Of a stretch of 30,723 bases of DNA, positions 1,438 to 11,480 are shown in pieces. The stretch spans positions 1 to 30,723 of the IMG/VR virus record IMGVR_UViG_2648501461_000010; one strand, written 5' to 3'. The stretch comes from a virus. Lineage: Duplodnaviria; Heunggongvirae; Uroviricota; Caudoviricetes. The translations under genes and the position numbers were made by a program. The notes under the pieces were generated by a model, which worked only from the letters and a program-made list of their open reading frames with translations, had not been told where the DNA came from and did no database searches. Numbering within the stretch: position 1 is the first letter of the stretch; the number at the start of each line of letters is the position of its first letter.

Positions 1438-1495
1438 AAAAAGGGCGGCAGAGCAGTCACGGAGTAAAACTGATACCGCCAAACGTCACCAGAAA
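1438..1495 (-). ncRNA. dicF: DicF-like small RNA (cell-division inhibitor sRNA of Qin/Rac-type prophages)
   Basis: Minus-strand sequence UUUCUGGUGACGUUUGGCGGUAUCAGUUUUACUCCGUGACUGCUCUGCCGCCCUUUUU matches my recollection of E. coli DicF, including the 3' GC stem plus U-run; it lies downstream of a ydfA-like leftward operon as in Qin. Identification is from memory, not a search. Confidence 0.55.
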
Positions 1496-2048: not shown

Positions 2049-2412
2049 TCGAAATCTCATGGCTAACTGTAACACTCCCGTCTGTGGCGGGATGCTTTAA
2101 ATCACAGGAATTAATGCTTCTTGTTGCGAAGTAATTTTCAAGGGGGTTCATTCGAATCCCTTTCTGTTTCATTAACAAGCCAAATCCCTTATCAATGATG
2201 TCCATTAATTCCAAGAAGTATTTTTTATGTAAATCCTGGTTATCAGAGAGTTGCTTCTCTTCGTACAGTCCGATAAAGGCACGACGCACGTTACCGGATA
2301 TATTATCGATGGTTTCTTTTTCTACGATACTCAGGTCAAGAGTCGCCAGTTGGGAACGAACTATATTCGCTGCCATTTCCTGGAATTGCATTGGTAAATC
2401 TTTAAATTCCAT
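2038..2412 (-). CDS. hypothetical early-left operon protein (about 124 aa)
   Basis: ORF directly following the ydfA-like gene on the minus strand; preferred start is the ATG at 2412 (GAGG 6 nt upstream) rather than 2424; no family recognised. Confidence 0.5.
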   Translation of the reverse strand: MEFKDLPMQFQEMAANIVRSQLATLDLSIVEKETIDNISGNVRRAFIGLYEEKQLSDNQDLHKKYFLELMDIIDKGFGLLMKQKGIRMNPLENYFATRSINSCDLKHPATDGSVTVSHEISINH

Positions 2413-2423
2413 CGTCAACCTCA

Positions 2424-2576
2424 TCAGTCAGTGTTTCTGGTTAACCAGCGACGCGCGCCAGCTTCCGTTTTAAACGTTTTGCTTCTGGTATACGTCATCG
2501 CGGTAAACGTTCCGTCCAGGTTGGGGAATACTCCACATACCAGAGATTCGTTGTTGCCAAGCTCGATAGTATCCAT
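2424..2576 (-). CDS. YdfA/YdaF-like small protein (DUF1391-like), first gene of the leftward early operon
   Basis: MDTIELGNNESLVCGVFPNLDGTFTAMTYTRSKTFKTEAGARRWLTRN resembles short YdfA/YdaF proteins of Qin/Rac prophages (from memory). Start chosen at the internal ATG 2576 with GAGG RBS; the longer frame to 2654 is probably leader. The stop overlaps the next gene's first candidate ATG by 1 nt. Confidence 0.5.
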   Translation of the reverse strand: MDTIELGNNESLVCGVFPNLDGTFTAMTYTRSKTFKTEAGARRWLTRNTD

Positions 2577-2757
2577 GCTGACCTCATTTCCCCTTAACGC
2601 CGGGGGAGCGGAACAAAAACCTGCTGCATAGTTAAAGTTGAACCCTGCCGTCATGTTCTTACGCCTCGGGCTGGCTACTTAACCCCTGACCACTGCCGGG
2701 TAACTCGAAGTATTGCCCTGCGTTCTGTGGGGCGGGGTGGGTAGTGGAAATAATCTA

Positions 2758-2795
2758 CAATTAAAAACTGTTTTGTGTCAACAGTTTTTAATTGT
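2758..2795. promoter_or_regulatory. candidate left operator (OL-like) palindrome
   Basis: Perfect 16-bp inverted repeat ACAATTAAAAACTGTT / AACAGTTTTTAATTGT with a 6-bp spacer, placed between the terminator of the repressor-TA operon and the leftward early gene; near-identical to the palindrome between the repressor and cro-like genes. Confidence 0.45.
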
Positions 2796-2805
2796 TGTGT
2801 TGGGC

Positions 2806-2830
2806 AAAAAAACTCCCTCGAATGAGGGAG
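2806..2830 (-). terminator. rho-independent terminator of the repressor/toxin-antitoxin operon
   Basis: On the minus strand, stem CTCCCTC / GAGGGAG with a 4-nt loop followed by a 7-U run, 18 nt downstream of the toxin stop. Confidence 0.55.
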
Positions 2831-2847
2831 TGTGAAAATTGTTCAGT

Positions 2848-3135
2848 TCAGATAGGGAAGGGAAATTGTCGGCGGGCATGCACAATATTTGCAATTTCAA
2901 TGCTTGAAGTTGCTACTCGGTACAAAACGATATAATTAGGGTGAACCACAATTTCCCGCAAACCGGATACTCGATCACTTGGCGGATATAGATATGGATG
3001 CTCAGAGAGGGCTAAAACAGACGTTTCAATCCGTATTTTTAGTCTGCGTGCTGCAGGAATATTTTCCTTAGCAATATAGGCTACGATCTGACGCAAATCA
3101 TCGCGAGCAGATGGTAGCCACAAAATGGGTAACAT
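2848..3135 (-). CDS. type II toxin, RelE/ParE family
   Basis: 95-aa protein with the typical ParE/RelE pattern (RDDLRQIVAYIA...REIVVHPNYIVLYRV...EIANIVHARR); its start overlaps the upstream antitoxin stop by 1 nt (TAATG). Confidence 0.75.
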   Translation of the reverse strand: MLPILWLPSARDDLRQIVAYIAKENIPAARRLKIRIETSVLALSEHPYLYPPSDRVSGLREIVVHPNYIVLYRVATSSIEIANIVHARRQFPFPI

Positions 3136-3326
3136 TACTCGCTCCTGTTAGTTACAGCAATTTGAGCAATAAGATTCTCCATTTCAGCCATTACCTCATC
3201 ATGTGGAATTGAGGGACGAGGGTCTGCAAGGCTTGACGCCACTTTAGCGCGTAACCATTCGTTGTAACTGTTTTCTTGTTCGGTAGTTTCGAATTCTGAA
3301 ACTATCGGAGAAAGGGCTGTACTCAT
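3135..3326 (-). CDS. putative antitoxin of the ParE/RelE-family toxin
   Basis: 63-aa acidic ORF immediately upstream of and translationally coupled to the toxin; GGAG RBS; begins 27 nt after the repressor stop. Assigned mainly by position and size. Confidence 0.6.
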   Translation of the reverse strand: MSTALSPIVSEFETTEQENSYNEWLRAKVASSLADPRPSIPHDEVMAEMENLIAQIAVTNRSE

Positions 3327-3353
3327 GGCATAACTCCTCTTCTTGTACTGTGG

Positions 3354-3755
3354 TCACGCCCGGCGGCTTTTTTGTGCCGCCAACCACCGGGCAATGGTTT
3401 CTTCCATTGATTTTTTCTTGTCTTTGATTTCTTGAAGCATTTTTTCTTGGTCTTCCTCTGGAAACGCACTAAAAGCCTGGAGCAGTTCGCGTTGACGAGG
3501 ACCAATTTTCATCGTGTCAGGGGTGAAAATTTGCTCCCCCTCTTCAGGAGGCAATAAAAACCAATGCAATGGATGCCCTGTAACCTCAACCAGTTTATCC
3601 AAACTTGAGGCTTTAGGTGTAGCCTTACCGCTGACCCATTGTTGAACAGTTTGTTGTGTCACACCAATTCTACGGGCAAGCTCAGCCTGGCTCCATCCAG
3701 TTTCCTGAAGAAGCTTGCTGATTCTGTACATAGATACTTCTAGGGCGTTCATCAT
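3354..3755 (-). CDS. prophage repressor, HTH XRE family (DicA/CI-like)
   Basis: N-terminal helix-turn-helix (SQAELARRIGVTQQTVQQW) and a C-terminal region resembling DicA; divergent from a Cro-like gene. The start could instead be the in-frame ATG at 3731 (MYRISKLL...). Confidence 0.8.
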   Translation of the reverse strand: MMNALEVSMYRISKLLQETGWSQAELARRIGVTQQTVQQWVSGKATPKASSLDKLVEVTGHPLHWFLLPPEEGEQIFTPDTMKIGPRQRELLQAFSAFPEEDQEKMLQEIKDKKKSMEETIARWLAAQKSRRA

Positions 3756-3791
3756 TATTCAATTTTACAGGTAAATACTGTTAAAAGCATC

Positions 3792-3830
3792 ACAATAAAA
3801 AACTGTTGATTGTGTACAGTTTTTTATTGT
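3792..3830. promoter_or_regulatory. candidate right operator (OR-like) palindrome in the repressor/cro divergent promoter region
   Basis: Perfect 15-bp inverted repeat ACAATAAAAAACTGT / ACAGTTTTTTATTGT with a 9-bp spacer in the 109-bp gap between the divergent repressor and cro-like genes. Confidence 0.5.
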
Positions 3831-3864
3831 AGGCTTTGCTTATAGTTTTTTAGAGGAGAGCAAA

Positions 3865-4137
3865 ATGCTAGATAGCACTCGCGAAAAAATTAGGCAGAAA
3901 TACACTCAAGCTGAAATAGGTCGTTATATGGGGGTCGCTCAACAGACTGTTTGGCAATGGTTTAGCTTTGACGTTCCCCCAAAGCAGGTAATTCCGTTAT
4001 GTCAGCTAATGAAGTGGGAAGTTACCCCGCATGAAATTCGCCCTGATATTTATCCTAACCCAACCGACGGTTTACCTGTTGGATTCAAGGTTAACACATC
4101 AAATGCACCGGAGCTGATTCATGAAAATCAAGCATGA
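3865..4137 (+). CDS. Cro-like HTH regulator (YdaS/DicC-like)
   Basis: 90-aa protein with an HTH (YTQAEIGRYMGVAQQTVWQW); divergent from the repressor; strong RBS GAGGAGAG; followed by a YdaT homologue as in Rac. Confidence 0.7.
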   Translation: MLDSTREKIRQKYTQAEIGRYMGVAQQTVWQWFSFDVPPKQVIPLCQLMKWEVTPHEIRPDIYPNPTDGLPVGFKVNTSNAPELIHENQA

Positions 4138-4546
4138 ACACATCCGCATGGCAATGAATGCCTGGGCGTATCCAGACGGTGAGAAAGTTCCAGCAGCTGA
4201 AATAGCCCGGACTTATTTCGAGCTGGGAATGACGTTCCCGGAACTGTATGACGACAGCCATCCGGAAGCCCTGGCTCGCAATACCCAGAAAATTTTCCGC
4301 TGGGTAGAGAAAGACACCCCTGATGCAGTTGAAAAAATTCAGGCGTTGTTACCAGCGATCGAAAAGGCAATGCCACCTTTGCTGGTGGCCAGAATGCGCA
4401 GCCACAGTTCAGCTTATTTTCGGGAGCTGGTGGAGACGCGGGAGCGACTGGTGAGAGACGCTGATGATTTTGTCGCAGTGGCAATCGCCGGTTTCAATCA
4501 GATGAACCGTGGTGGCCCGGCAGGAAATGCTGTGGCAGTACATTGA
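4121..4546 (+). CDS. ydaT: YdaT-family protein (CII-like regulator, reported toxic in Rac)
   Basis: 141-aa sequence (MKIKHEHIRMAMNAWAYPDGEKVPAAEIARTYFELGMTFPELYDDSHPEALARNTQKIFRWVEKDTPDAV...) closely matches my recollection of E. coli Rac YdaT; it overlaps the cro-like gene's 3' end. Confidence 0.75.
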   Translation: MKIKHEHIRMAMNAWAYPDGEKVPAAEIARTYFELGMTFPELYDDSHPEALARNTQKIFRWVEKDTPDAVEKIQALLPAIEKAMPPLLVARMRSHSSAYFRELVETRERLVRDADDFVAVAIAGFNQMNRGGPAGNAVAVH

Positions 4547-5728: not shown

Positions 5729-6154
5729 GTGGCAAAAGTTTTTACACAAGAAGAGCGGGAAAAAATTAAAGGGCAGGTTCTTGAACTCGTACGCCAGAGT
5801 GGGCGCGAGACGTTACGACAACTGGAAGCTAAAACTGGGGCAACAAGATATCTGATGAGCGTTCTGGCCAGAGAGCTGGTTGCCAGTGGCGATGTATACA
5901 ACTCTGGTTACGGGTTATTCCCGTCTGAACAGGCGCGTAAGGACTGGCAAAATGCCCGTAAAAAGCTCTCAAGGGCAAAGCTGAATAAACCATCTGCGGT
6001 TGATCCGGACCTTATCTGGTCGTTACCAGACGGCGAAATACGCCGCTACGACAGGCGCCTGAATATAATCTGTCGCGAGTGCCGGAAGAGCGAAGCTATG
6101 CAGCGTGTACTGGCATTTTATCAAGGAAATGTTAGGTATTTTAGACGTTACTAG
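5729..6154 (+). CDS. hypothetical protein (141 aa), possibly winged-helix, downstream of the initiator
   Basis: GTG start with RBS CAGGAGGG; basic protein with no recognised family; sits where a helicase loader (P/DnaC-like) would usually be. Confidence 0.5.
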   Translation: MAKVFTQEEREKIKGQVLELVRQSGRETLRQLEAKTGATRYLMSVLARELVASGDVYNSGYGLFPSEQARKDWQNARKKLSRAKLNKPSAVDPDLIWSLPDGEIRRYDRRLNIICRECRKSEAMQRVLAFYQGNVRYFRRY

Positions 6155-6307: not shown

Positions 6308-6994
6308 ATGACCCCAATAAAAATATTTATGACTATTGCTGATTTCAAACGGCCTAAATTGGAGCTCCCAAACGGGGCAAACAAACTACTACTGCACTCT
6401 TGCTGTGCTCCATGTTCCGGTGAAGTGATGGAGGCGCTTCAGGCCTCGGGAATCGACTACACCATCTTTTTCTACAACCCGAACATTCATCCTCAGAAAG
6501 AGTATTTAATTCGTAAGGATGAAAATATTCGCTTTGCTGAACAACACGGCGTGCCGTTTATCGATGCTGATTACGACACCGACAACTGGTTTGAACGTGC
6601 CAAAGGAATGGAATGGGAGCCTGAGAGGGGGATCCGTTGTACCATGTGTTTTGACATGCGTTTTGAGCGGACAGCGTTGTACGCTGCTGAAAATGGTTTC
6701 AGTGTGATCAGCAGTTCACTGGGCATTTCACGCTGGAAAAATATGCAGCAGGTTAACGAGTGTGGGCGGCGAGCTGTTGCGCATTATCCGGGTATGGTGT
6801 ACTGGGATTATAACTGGCGCAAGCAGGGCGGCTCGTCCCGTATGATTGAAATCAGCAAGCGCGAAAAATTCTATCAGCAGGAATATTGTGGCTGTGTGTA
6901 TTCTCTGCGCGATACCAATCTACACCGCAAATCTCAGGGGCGCCCTCTTATCAAAATTGGCCAACTCCACTACGGAAAAGAAGAGAAGGAGTGA
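6308..6994 (+). CDS. queH: epoxyqueuosine reductase QueH (DUF208 family)
   Basis: N-terminal [11 protein letters not shown] motif plus downstream conserved Cys residues and a size of about 225 aa are characteristic of QueH. Alternative start ATG at 6329. Confidence 0.75.
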
Positions 6995-7231
6995 TTTTAT
7001 GGATCACCTTTCTGATTGATTTCATATTGGCGAGGTGACGTGAGTTAAGTAGAATTGCTGCGGGTGCTTGAGGCTATCTGCCTCAGGCATGAACACCAAA
7101 AGGCAGATAGAGAAAAGCCCCAGTTAACATTACGCGTCCTGCAAGACGCTTAACATTAATCTGAGGCTCAATCCATGCTGAACACATGTAGGTTAGCCTC
7201 TTACGTGCCGAAAGGCAAGGAGAAGCAGGCT

Positions 7232-7387
7232 ATGAAGCAGCAAAAGGCGATGTTAATCGCCCTGATCGTCATCTGTTTAACCGTCATAGTGACGGCACTG
7301 GTAACGAGGAAAGACCTCTGCGAGGTACGAATCCGAACCGGCCAGACGGAGGTCGCTGTCTTCACAGCTTACGAACCTGAGGAGTAA
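7232..7387 (+). CDS. Hok/Gef-family type I toxin
   Basis: MKQQKAMLIALIVICLTVIVTALVTRKDLCEVRIRTGQTEVAVFTAYEPEE matches the Hok consensus (transmembrane helix, LTRK..LCE, EVA..AYE); RBS AAGGAGAAG; followed by the typical structured 3' end and terminator. Confidence 0.8.
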   Translation: MKQQKAMLIALIVICLTVIVTALVTRKDLCEVRIRTGQTEVAVFTAYEPEE

Positions 7388-11170: not shown

Positions 11171-11246
11171 GGCCCTTTAGCTCAGTGGTGAGAGCGAGCG
11201 ACTCATAATCGCCAGGTCGCTGGTTCAAATCCAGCAAGGGCCACCA
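11171..11246 (+). tRNA. tRNA with CAU anticodon (tRNA-Ile2 type, lysidine-dependent, or tRNA-Met)
   Basis: 76-nt cloverleaf by manual folding, anticodon loop CUCAUAA, 3' CCA encoded; close to my recollection of E. coli ileX. Confidence 0.8.
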
Positions 11247-11247
11247 A

Positions 11248-11324
11248 CCGCCACTAGCTCATCAGGAAAGAGCGTCAACCCTTTAAGTTGAGAGTGCGAG
11301 GTTCGAGTCCCCGGTGGCGGTCCA
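11248..11324 (+). tRNA. tRNA-like gene, anticodon UUU (Lys) with atypical C33
   Basis: 77-nt cloverleaf by manual folding: 7-bp acceptor stem, D-loop with GG, TPsiC loop UUCGAGU, encoded CCA; anticodon stem UCAAC/GUUGA with loop CCUUUAA. Position 33 is C instead of the near-universal U, and the T-stem has one A-C mismatch. Confidence 0.55.
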
Positions 11325-11326
11325 GT

Positions 11327-11402
<76 letters not shown>

Positions 11403-11405
11403 TAT

Positions 11406-11480
<75 letters not shown>

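Follow-up and report, generated by a model that had tools for sequence, protein, structure and literature searches.

A PaaR–PaaA–ParE toxin–antitoxin module in the immunity region of a lambdoid Escherichia coli prophage

Two short genes that encode a PaaA-type antitoxin and a ParE-type toxin lie immediately behind the repressor gene of a lambdoid E. coli prophage, which is represented here by a 30,723 nt stretch of Caudoviricetes DNA (IMG/VR virus record IMGVR_UViG_2648501461_000010; the whole of this stretch is termed the window). We conclude, with a probability of roughly 0.8, that these genes and the repressor gene constitute a three-component PaaR–PaaA–ParE type II toxin–antitoxin module in the immunity region of the prophage. 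The sequence hallmarks of this family are present, namely a ParE toxin, a PaaA protein lacking a DNA-binding domain encoded directly upstream of it, and a helix-turn-helix (HTH) regulator encoded further upstream on the same strand. What the DNA itself shows is the anatomy of the genes, the families and orthologues to which they belong, the placement of operators and terminator, and purifying selection on the toxin gene. The feature is real and was correctly delimited and interpreted in a preliminary description of the window; the module type and its position were already known from E. coli O157:H7.

Gene content and junctions of the operon

The six-frame list of open reading frames (ORFs), read together with the sequence, gives three consecutive genes on the minus strand that encode proteins of 133 aa (3354–3755), 63 aa (3135–3326) and 95 aa (2848–3135). 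The first is a paaR-type immunity repressor, analogous to CI, with an N-terminal HTH (Pfam HTH_3, 50.8 bits) and a C-terminal domain of about 45 aa that is common to PaaR2 and DicA. This protein aligns over its full length, at a score below threshold, with the NCBIfam model for the DicA repressor, and a Pfam scan found no S24 peptidase domain in it. The repressor stop codon occupies 3354–3356 and is separated from the antitoxin gene by a spacer of exactly 27 nt on the same strand (3327–3353), the distance given in the preliminary description. The spacer supplies a GAGGAG ribosome binding site 7 nt upstream of the antitoxin ATG (3326–3324).

The product of the antitoxin gene, paaA (3135–3326, minus strand), scores 76.9 bits against the Pfam PaaA2 ‘stability determinant’ family (PF21217, gathering cut-off 27) and 96.1 bits against NCBIfam NF050103. 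A Pfam scan of its 63 aa revealed no DNA-binding domain and no domain besides PaaA2. The toxin gene, parE (2848–3135, minus strand), begins within a TAATG stop/start overlap in which base 3135 is shared with the antitoxin gene, and AGGAG stands 8 nt upstream of its ATG; the coupling proposed earlier for the two genes is borne out by this junction. The toxin scores 59.7 bits against Pfam ParE_toxin (PF05016, cut-off 23). Both proteins exceed their Pfam gathering scores, in agreement with the original assignment to the type II antitoxin–toxin pairs of the ParE/RelE superfamily. That label was correct at the level of the superfamily, but it missed that the module belongs to the named PaaR–PaaA–ParE family and is not new. 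The best solved-structure matches are those of the O157 PaaA2–ParE2 complex (5CW7, 5CZE, 5CZF and 3ZBE), with the toxin matching ParE2 (PDB 5cw7_B) at an E-value of 2.3e-38 and 66.3% identity and the antitoxin matching PaaA2 (PDB 3zbe/5cw7) at an E-value of 1.5e-22.

The operon is closed by an intrinsic terminator (2805–2831, minus strand) that begins 16 nt past the toxin stop codon. This element consists of ACTCCCTC-ATTC-GAGGGAGT (2831–2812) followed by seven T residues, and it forms an 8-bp stem (5 GC) with a 4-nt loop. Its predicted fold has a free energy of −13.9 kcal/mol (z = −3.6 versus dinucleotide shuffles), a stability reached by one of 200 shuffled sequences. The terminator is followed by a palindrome at 2757–2795, as anticipated by the claim of a clean terminator before the left operator. 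Repressor, antitoxin and toxin are probably encoded on one transcript, as in the systems of E. coli O157:H7. At the threshold of a scan of positions 2400–4200, the minus-strand interval from the repressor start to the toxin showed no promoter-like or terminator-like site, and on that result we rejected an internal promoter by which the pair could be expressed independently of the repressor.

Operators and promoters of the immunity region

The left operator and promoter (OL/PL, 2752–2795, minus strand) comprise a perfect 39-bp palindrome (2757–2795) whose 16-nt arms are 100% complementary. A leftward PL-like promoter, TTGACA-18-TAGATT (10 of 12 matches, minus strand 2781–2752), is built into this element in such a way that its −35 hexamer TTGACA (2781–2776) lies inside the palindrome and its −10 hexamer TAGATT (2757–2752) abuts it. 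This is the only sigma-70-like site that the promoter scan recovered on either strand of 2400–4200, and it reads toward a ydfA-like gene, DicF and a dicB remnant. The right operator (OR, 3773–3850) lies between the repressor gene and the divergent gene that starts at 3865. It contains a sister 39-bp palindrome (3792–3830) that is 82% identical to the left copy and is accompanied by the outer half-sites AAATACTGT (3773–3781) and ATAGTTTTT (3842–3850). The palindrome core, AAACTGT-N(5–11)-ACAGTTT, has exactly two occurrences in the whole 30.7 kb (2765–2787 and 3800–3822), where 100 shuffles lead one to expect none.

The left palindrome, the terminator and the right intergenic region are retained in the same-immunity O157 locus of the Sp4 type, where the OR region is 98% identical. 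Two heteroimmune loci carry unrelated sequence at the operators, and the leader downstream of PL is invariant in all four loci. Conservation within one immunity type and replacement in others is the pattern expected of an immunity-specific operator.

A candidate −10 element for a PRM-like promoter (PRM, promoter for repressor maintenance), TAAAAT, is located at 3767–3762 on the minus strand, just outside the OR range. Because this hexamer ends 6 nt before the repressor ATG, and no ribosome binding site precedes that codon, a leaderless repressor transcript is plausible, as for cI and paaR2. By analogy with PL and with CP-933P, a candidate for the right promoter (PR) may reside in the right palindrome, with TTGATT (3806–3811) and TAGGCT (3830–3835) separated by an 18-nt spacer.

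The divergent genes on the plus strand are a ydaS-type gene for a Cro analogue (3865–4137; Pfam YdaS_toxin, 37.8 bits) and a ydaT-type gene for a CII analogue (4121–4546; Pfam YdaT_toxin, 39.6 bits). By analogy with the homologues, YdaS of the window would act as Cro (PMC8630535) and YdaT as CII (PMC8630535, PMC9986795). The published consensus for the YdaT site is TTGATT-N6-AATCAA (Prolic-Kalinsek et al., 2023, PMC9986795). The window holds one match to this consensus at no more than one mismatch, the inverted repeat CTGATT-N6-AATCAA (4114–4131, plus strand; one mismatch), which spans the ydaS/ydaT junction in the manner of the OM operator. In CP-933P the OM site is part of the YdaT-activated PRE promoter (PRE, promoter for repressor establishment), which also drives the repressor–antitoxin–toxin operon. 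With divergent ydaS–ydaT genes, intergenic operators and a second OL/PL set beyond the toxin, the layout is that of a CP-933P-type immunity region.

On the far side of PL, the leftward operon opens with the ydfA-like DUF1391 gene (2424–2576, minus strand; Pfam DUF1391, 93.4 bits), which is annotated as a coding sequence (CDS) by RefSeq in strain IHE3034. This gene marks the end of the cassette and the resumption of ordinary lambdoid early-left genes. Between PL and this gene lies a C-rich leader of about 90 nt (2655–2740, minus strand) that is invariant across three immunity types in which the adjacent operators have been replaced. It could be a Rho-utilization or antitermination site. Its predicted fold is about as stable as those of shuffled sequences (z = −0.41) and an Rfam search of it gave no match, results on which a structured put/nut-like RNA was rejected. 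Further along the PL operon, a gene for the DicF small RNA (1443–1494, minus strand; Rfam, 76.7 bits) adjoins a truncated dicB pseudogene (RefSeq, IHE3034) and mirrors the dicBF operon of the K-12 prophage Qin.

Orthology with the second O157:H7 system

When compared with the Sp4-type locus of E. coli O157:H7 JEONG-1266 (locus L002), the proteins of the window show amino acid identities of 97.7% (repressor), 97.8% (YdaS), 90.5% (PaaA), 85.3% (ParE) and 87.9% (YdaT). The two loci share gene order, the 27-nt gap, the 1-nt overlap and immunity type, as well as the flanking ydfA-like gene and ydaS/ydaT, the OL palindrome and the terminator. They differ in the toxin allele and in genomic location, because the window prophage resides in extraintestinal pathogenic E. 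coli (ExPEC) beside tRNA-Ser/mtfA rather than in O157. In strain Sakai the equivalents in prophage Sp4 are ECs_1069 (repressor), ECs_1068 (antitoxin) and ECs_1067 (toxin). O157:H7 genomes contain exactly two such loci, Sp4 and Sp12/CP-933P, and two paralogues have likewise been reported from this serotype (PMC8630535, PMC4803016). The Sp12 locus is of the CP-933P type, so the Sp4-type module of the window is, by these sequence comparisons, the orthologue of the second paaR–paaA–parE system of O157:H7, that of prophage Sp4.

The toxin gene departs from the high similarity of the remainder of the locus. Whereas paaA, paaR and ydaS are 94–97.5% identical to their Sp4-type counterparts at the nucleotide level, parE (2848–3135) shares 78.5% of its nucleotides with positions 6001–6288 of L002, with a synonymous divergence (dS) of 1.35, which is saturated, and a ratio of non-synonymous to synonymous divergence (dN/dS) of 0.06. 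Identity with the Sp4-type locus falls sharply at about 3088–3135, near the 5′ end of parE. The contrast between the divergent parE and the better-conserved paaA, paaR and ydaS shows that the toxin allele was exchanged by recombination, with a breakpoint near the 5′ end of the gene. The low dN/dS indicates strong purifying selection on parE and speaks against its decay. In the window, a toxin allele that has diverged stands beside an antitoxin that has hardly changed.

Comparison with the CP-933P paralogue

Most functional knowledge of such modules comes from the paaR2–paaA2–parE2 genes, which reside in the CP-933P immunity region as one operon under a CI-like repressor (Jurenas et al., 2021, PMC8630535). 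In that system PaaR2, which lacks an S24 peptidase domain, is the CI analogue and is produced from a leaderless mRNA, while YdaS and YdaT are the analogues of Cro and CII respectively (PMC8630535). PaaR2 and YdaS bind to the intergenic operators and also, past the toxin gene, to a second operator/promoter set named PL933P; the paaR2–paaA2–parE2 operon is in addition transcribed from a PRE-like promoter that YdaT activates (PMC8630535). The locus is bistable, and it stabilizes a mini-F plasmid (PMC8630535); killing of plasmid-free cells requires ClpAP and ClpXP according to earlier work of the same authors, as cited there. Reporter experiments revealed that the toxin–antitoxin genes are transcribed in both states of the switch, not just when the repressor is on, and that the fraction of SOS-positive cells is equal between the states (PMC8630535). 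As summarized in a 2016 review of the 2010 primary work (PMC4803016), a sigma-70 promoter upstream of paaR drives a common transcript of the three genes, PaaR is required for full repression, and the O157 toxins are growth-inhibitory and are neutralized by the cognate PaaA, with no cross-neutralization between PaaA1 and PaaA2.

The Sakai prophage Sp12 is equated with CP-933P in the literature. Our CP-933P-type locus (L004) encodes a ParE whose 92 residues are identical to those of the crystallized ParE2, together with a repressor that begins with MQKKE, the published N-terminus of PaaR2. Amino acid identities between the window and this locus are 33.6% for the repressor, 16.8% for YdaS, 65.1% for PaaA, 66.3% for ParE and 83.0% for YdaT. 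The two have in common their architecture, the position in the immunity region, divergent ydaS–ydaT genes, PL/OL after the toxin, a conserved C-terminal domain of the repressor and an OM-like site. In contrast, the N-terminal DNA-binding part of PaaR2 is unrelated to that of the window repressor, and the operators differ in form: CP-933P has four 18-bp repeats (consensus GTTTAGTAA) and a 97-bp intergenic region, and the window has one 39-bp palindrome with two outer half-sites.

The same contrast between a variable and a constant part of the repressor was evident in an alignment that took in two same-immunity loci, two other immunity types and DicA of K-12. The N-terminal HTH parts vary, and a C-terminal block, ELLQxFxAFPE...ARWLAAQK, is common to all and conserved in three heteroimmune repressors; this domain may serve in oligomerization. 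Similarity to the heteroimmune loci at the DNA level ends inside the repressor gene.

Proposed mechanism

If the window allele behaves as its homologues do, the PaaR-type repressor of DicA-like architecture would bind both 39-bp palindromes (OR and OL) and shut off PR (ydaS/ydaT) as well as PL. The repressor transcript, probably leaderless and initiated at the PRM-like promoter, would continue through paaA and parE to the terminator at 2831–2812. PaaA, which is probably protease-labile, would wrap around and neutralize the stable ParE. Upon loss or silencing of the module, PaaA would decay and free ParE would attack the nucleoid, with a type II topoisomerase as its most likely target, leading to an SOS response and death. 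The module would in this manner be an addiction element that stabilizes the prophage and its immunity region. Co-transcription, toxicity and neutralization, ClpXP/ClpAP lability, post-segregational killing and the roles of the CI, Cro and CII analogues are all attributed to the window by analogy with experiments on the O157:H7 homologues. What we infer is that the repressor transcript starts without a leader, that PR is the candidate named above, that the repressor oligomerizes through its C-terminal domain, and which target the toxin has.

Several points weigh against this reading. Toxicity, neutralization, co-transcription and addiction would be properties of the window allele only to the extent that they carry over from homologues that are 66–98% identical. 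The hexamers of the PR candidate, TTGATT and TAGGCT, are poor and fall under the scan threshold. We take Sp4 to be CP-933M in view of the presence of exactly two loci in O157:H7, and we presume that the Sp4/CP-933M system is the one usually called paaR1–paaA1–parE1 (Hallez et al., 2010, as cited in later papers). Finally, when single cells with CP-933P were studied, ParE2 activity was seen in neither state of the switch (PMC8630535), so that the natural trigger and the benefit are unproven.

Toxin target and alternative explanations

The ParE/RelE superfamily includes both poisons of DNA gyrase and ribosome-dependent RNases, and the preliminary description held that family membership could not decide between them. 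The question is narrower than that. A RelE-like mRNA endonuclease would fit the span of PF05016, which covers both branches, the score of 26.3 bits (E-value 7.8e-6) that the toxin attains against the NCBIfam RelE/StbE model TIGR02385, and the observation that ParE2 did not bind GyrA59. However, that score is under the 27.9-bit cut-off of the model, and each of the four solved-structure chains matched with an E-value below 1e-3 was deposited under the name ParE or plasmid stabilization protein, whereas a RelE/StbE chain is reached at an E-value of 0.18 and Caulobacter ParE1 at 0.44. The RelE assignment was rejected on the basis of the cut-off and this ranking. The 66%-identical ParE2, moreover, colocalizes with the nucleoid and induces the SOS response when overexpressed (PMC8630535), and we consider it highly improbable that the toxin of the window is an RNase. 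It is best described as a putative DNA- or topoisomerase-directed ParE toxin.

The pair might instead serve as a RexAB-like system for abortive infection or superinfection exclusion, in which a phage that shuts off host transcription or speeds PaaA turnover would release ParE to kill the cell before the invader replicates. The genes occupy the rexAB slot and, by analogy, would be expressed with the repressor operon; accessory genes of prophages at this position are often defence genes, and roughly 16% of the complete genomes of E. coli contain such a module. Nevertheless, toxin and antitoxin match no PADLOC model at an E-value of 0.01 or less (only the generic HTH of the repressor was matched), the phenotype published for these modules is addiction and the literature that we found reports none in phage defence, and type II toxins act at least 1 h after activation, which exceeds the phage cycle (PMC10899753). 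We regard a defence function as unlikely. Another conceivable role is within the lysis–lysogeny circuit: when the repressor is switched off, decay of PaaA would permit ParE to damage DNA and to reinforce induction, for example through an SOS-controlled antirepressor, and would thereby offset a repressor that RecA cannot cleave. The repressor does lack an S24 peptidase domain, as stated for PaaR2 (PMC8630535), an antirepressor-like Rha/C4/IsrK module is encoded in this prophage at 411–1259, and overexpressed ParE2 elicits SOS. Yet the CP-933P toxin–antitoxin genes were transcribed in both states of the switch, the SOS-positive fraction did not differ between these states, a link between ParE and induction is unreported in the literature that we found, and the proposal is speculative; its chances appear very small. 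Slighter still is the prospect that the pair is a decaying, non-functional remnant in a defective prophage. Its closest studied relatives do reside in cryptic prophages (PMC8630535) and the integrase gene is frameshifted in IHE3034, but both ORFs are intact with their own ribosome binding sites, parE retains a dN/dS of 0.06 despite saturated synonymous divergence, and the O157 homologues are described as expressed and active in the 2021 study and in the review's summary (PMC8630535, PMC4803016).

A further reading, which departs from plain addiction, is tentative, and we consider it doubtful. The PaaA-associated ParE clade, which has the motif HPYLYPPS, may hit a target other than GyrA's N-terminal domain; its release when the repressor operon is silenced might act as a lysogen-specific abortive-infection or anti-recombination device, and the allele switch at the 5′ end of parE would then represent toxin diversification under conflict.

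Relation to lambda, Qin and classical ParDE systems

The comparison of the pair with rexAB that was made at the outset holds for its position directly behind the repressor gene, and the literature says the same of CP-933P, in which parE2 and paaA2 ‘replace’ rexB and rexA (Prolic-Kalinsek et al., 2023, PMC9986795). As in lambda cI–rexA–rexB, the accessory genes stand between repressor and OL/PL, where they would be co-transcribed from PRM/PRE and expressed in the lysogen, an analogy made explicit in the literature (PMC8630535, PMC9986795). RexA and RexB, in contrast, have no relation in sequence or fold to PaaA and ParE of the window. The lambda proteins exclude superinfecting phages, whereas the reported phenotype of PaaA–ParE is addiction, and the PaaR-type repressor lacks a RecA-cleavable domain.

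The Qin prophage of E. coli K-12 resembles the window in its regulatory frame. Its dicA–dicC region has a two-domain repressor (full-length alignment, with the ELLxxFxALPE motif in common), a divergent Cro-like gene, a leftward operon running from ydfA to DicF and dicB, and a bistable switch in which the repressor is relieved by an antirepressor. There is no toxin–antitoxin pair in Qin, where dicA is followed by ydfA after 166 nt. The dicA–ydfA arrangement is an ‘empty-site’ version of the layout in the window.

Relatives of the toxin from other bacteria bear on the origin of the cassette. In contigs drawn from one genome per species, we inspected 80 loci of other proteobacteria, mostly Pseudomonas and Burkholderiales, with ParE relatives that are 43–63% identical. 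A PaaA-like gene lies just upstream of the ParE relative in 79 of these, and the PaaR C-terminal domain was found in none of the 80. By these counts, PaaA–ParE is elsewhere a free-standing two-gene cassette that, in enterobacterial lambdoid prophages, sits between a DicA-type repressor and PL. An insertion scenario has been proposed (PMC8630535), with which the findings on the window agree.

Classical ParD–ParE systems (RK2; Vibrio cholerae ParDE2) resemble the pair in their PF05016 toxin, small labile antitoxin encoded upstream and addiction phenotype. They differ in that PaaA of the window lacks a ribbon-helix-helix DNA-binding domain, so that a separate repressor regulates the operon. In addition, the key Trp25 of V. 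cholerae ParE2 is not conserved in the PaaA-associated ParE clade (Phe is reported in O157 ParE2).

Source prophage and distribution of the module

A 1.2-kb region is 100% identical to chromosomes of ExPEC strains such as IHE3034 and the uropathogenic E. coli (UPEC) strain 26-1. The window is 99.9–100% identical to ExPEC chromosomes, with differences from IHE3034 at 23 of 23,900 positions. RefSeq labels the three products there as RelE/ParE toxin, RelB-family antitoxin and HTH protein. The IHE3034 lambdoid prophage extends from a frameshifted integrase gene next to tRNA-Ser/mtfA through exonuclease, kil, the immunity region, replication, Q, lysis, terminase and head genes to the tail genes.

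When the three genes were used as a blastn query, matches were obtained in 842 of 5,426 complete E. coli genomes (about one in six). The match covers at least 80% of the query length in 544 of the matching genomes. Identity reaches 99% or more in only 45 and falls in the O157-like range of 90–95% in 444. The CP-933P type is present in 633 genomes. A tblastn search with the toxin against 50,697 phage records gave one match, to Escherichia phage Evi, in which the toxin ORF is unannotated. Since this was the only match among so many records, the module is seen mainly in prophages and not in isolated phages. In Evi (LR597642) the unannotated toxin ORF, at 3001–3276 of the locus (L005), comes right after genes for a 63-aa ‘hypothetical protein’ and a 123-aa ‘putative regulator’, in the CP-933P-type gene order.

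Elsewhere in the window, a sok antisense RNA (7062–7237, plus strand; Rfam, 120.5 bits) accompanies a hokD-type type I toxin gene, and the prophage has in hok/sok a second, unrelated toxin–antitoxin system. The cargo of the prophage includes a gene for the epoxyqueuosine reductase QueH (6308–6994, plus strand; Pfam, 221.5 bits), a tRNA-modification enzyme; it follows the replication genes and precedes hok/sok. A cluster of four tRNA genes (11171–11480, plus strand) is located after the Q antiterminator region and before the lysis genes, identified by ARAGORN as Met(CAT), Lys(TTT), Thr(TGT) and Gly(TCC); RefSeq assigns the CAT tRNA to tRNA-Ile where ARAGORN has Met.

At 411–1259 on the minus strand is a 282-aa CDS that RefSeq designates as ‘Rha family phage regulatory protein’, with the Rha domain at aa 120–204. 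Its N-terminal third (Pfam Phage_ASH, aa 14–108) coincides with Rfam matches to the C4 antisense RNA (73.8 bits) and isrK (66.6 bits) on the minus strand (1020–1107 and 1132–1208). This third probably represents RNA genes and not protein, with the real protein starting near MATTLTL. The region looks like an antirepressor module of the P1 c4/ant type, which would offer a route to induction for a repressor without a RecA-cleavable domain.

Significance

Papers that appeared between 2010 and 2023 describe the module type, its place behind the CI-like repressor of lambdoid prophages, the co-transcription of its genes and the addiction that it confers, and RefSeq already annotates these exact proteins. 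The finding has little weight as a discovery, and its value lies in context. The ExPEC copy combines Sp4-type immunity with a divergent toxin allele, and it could be a natural test of antitoxin–toxin specificity and of the target of this ParE clade.

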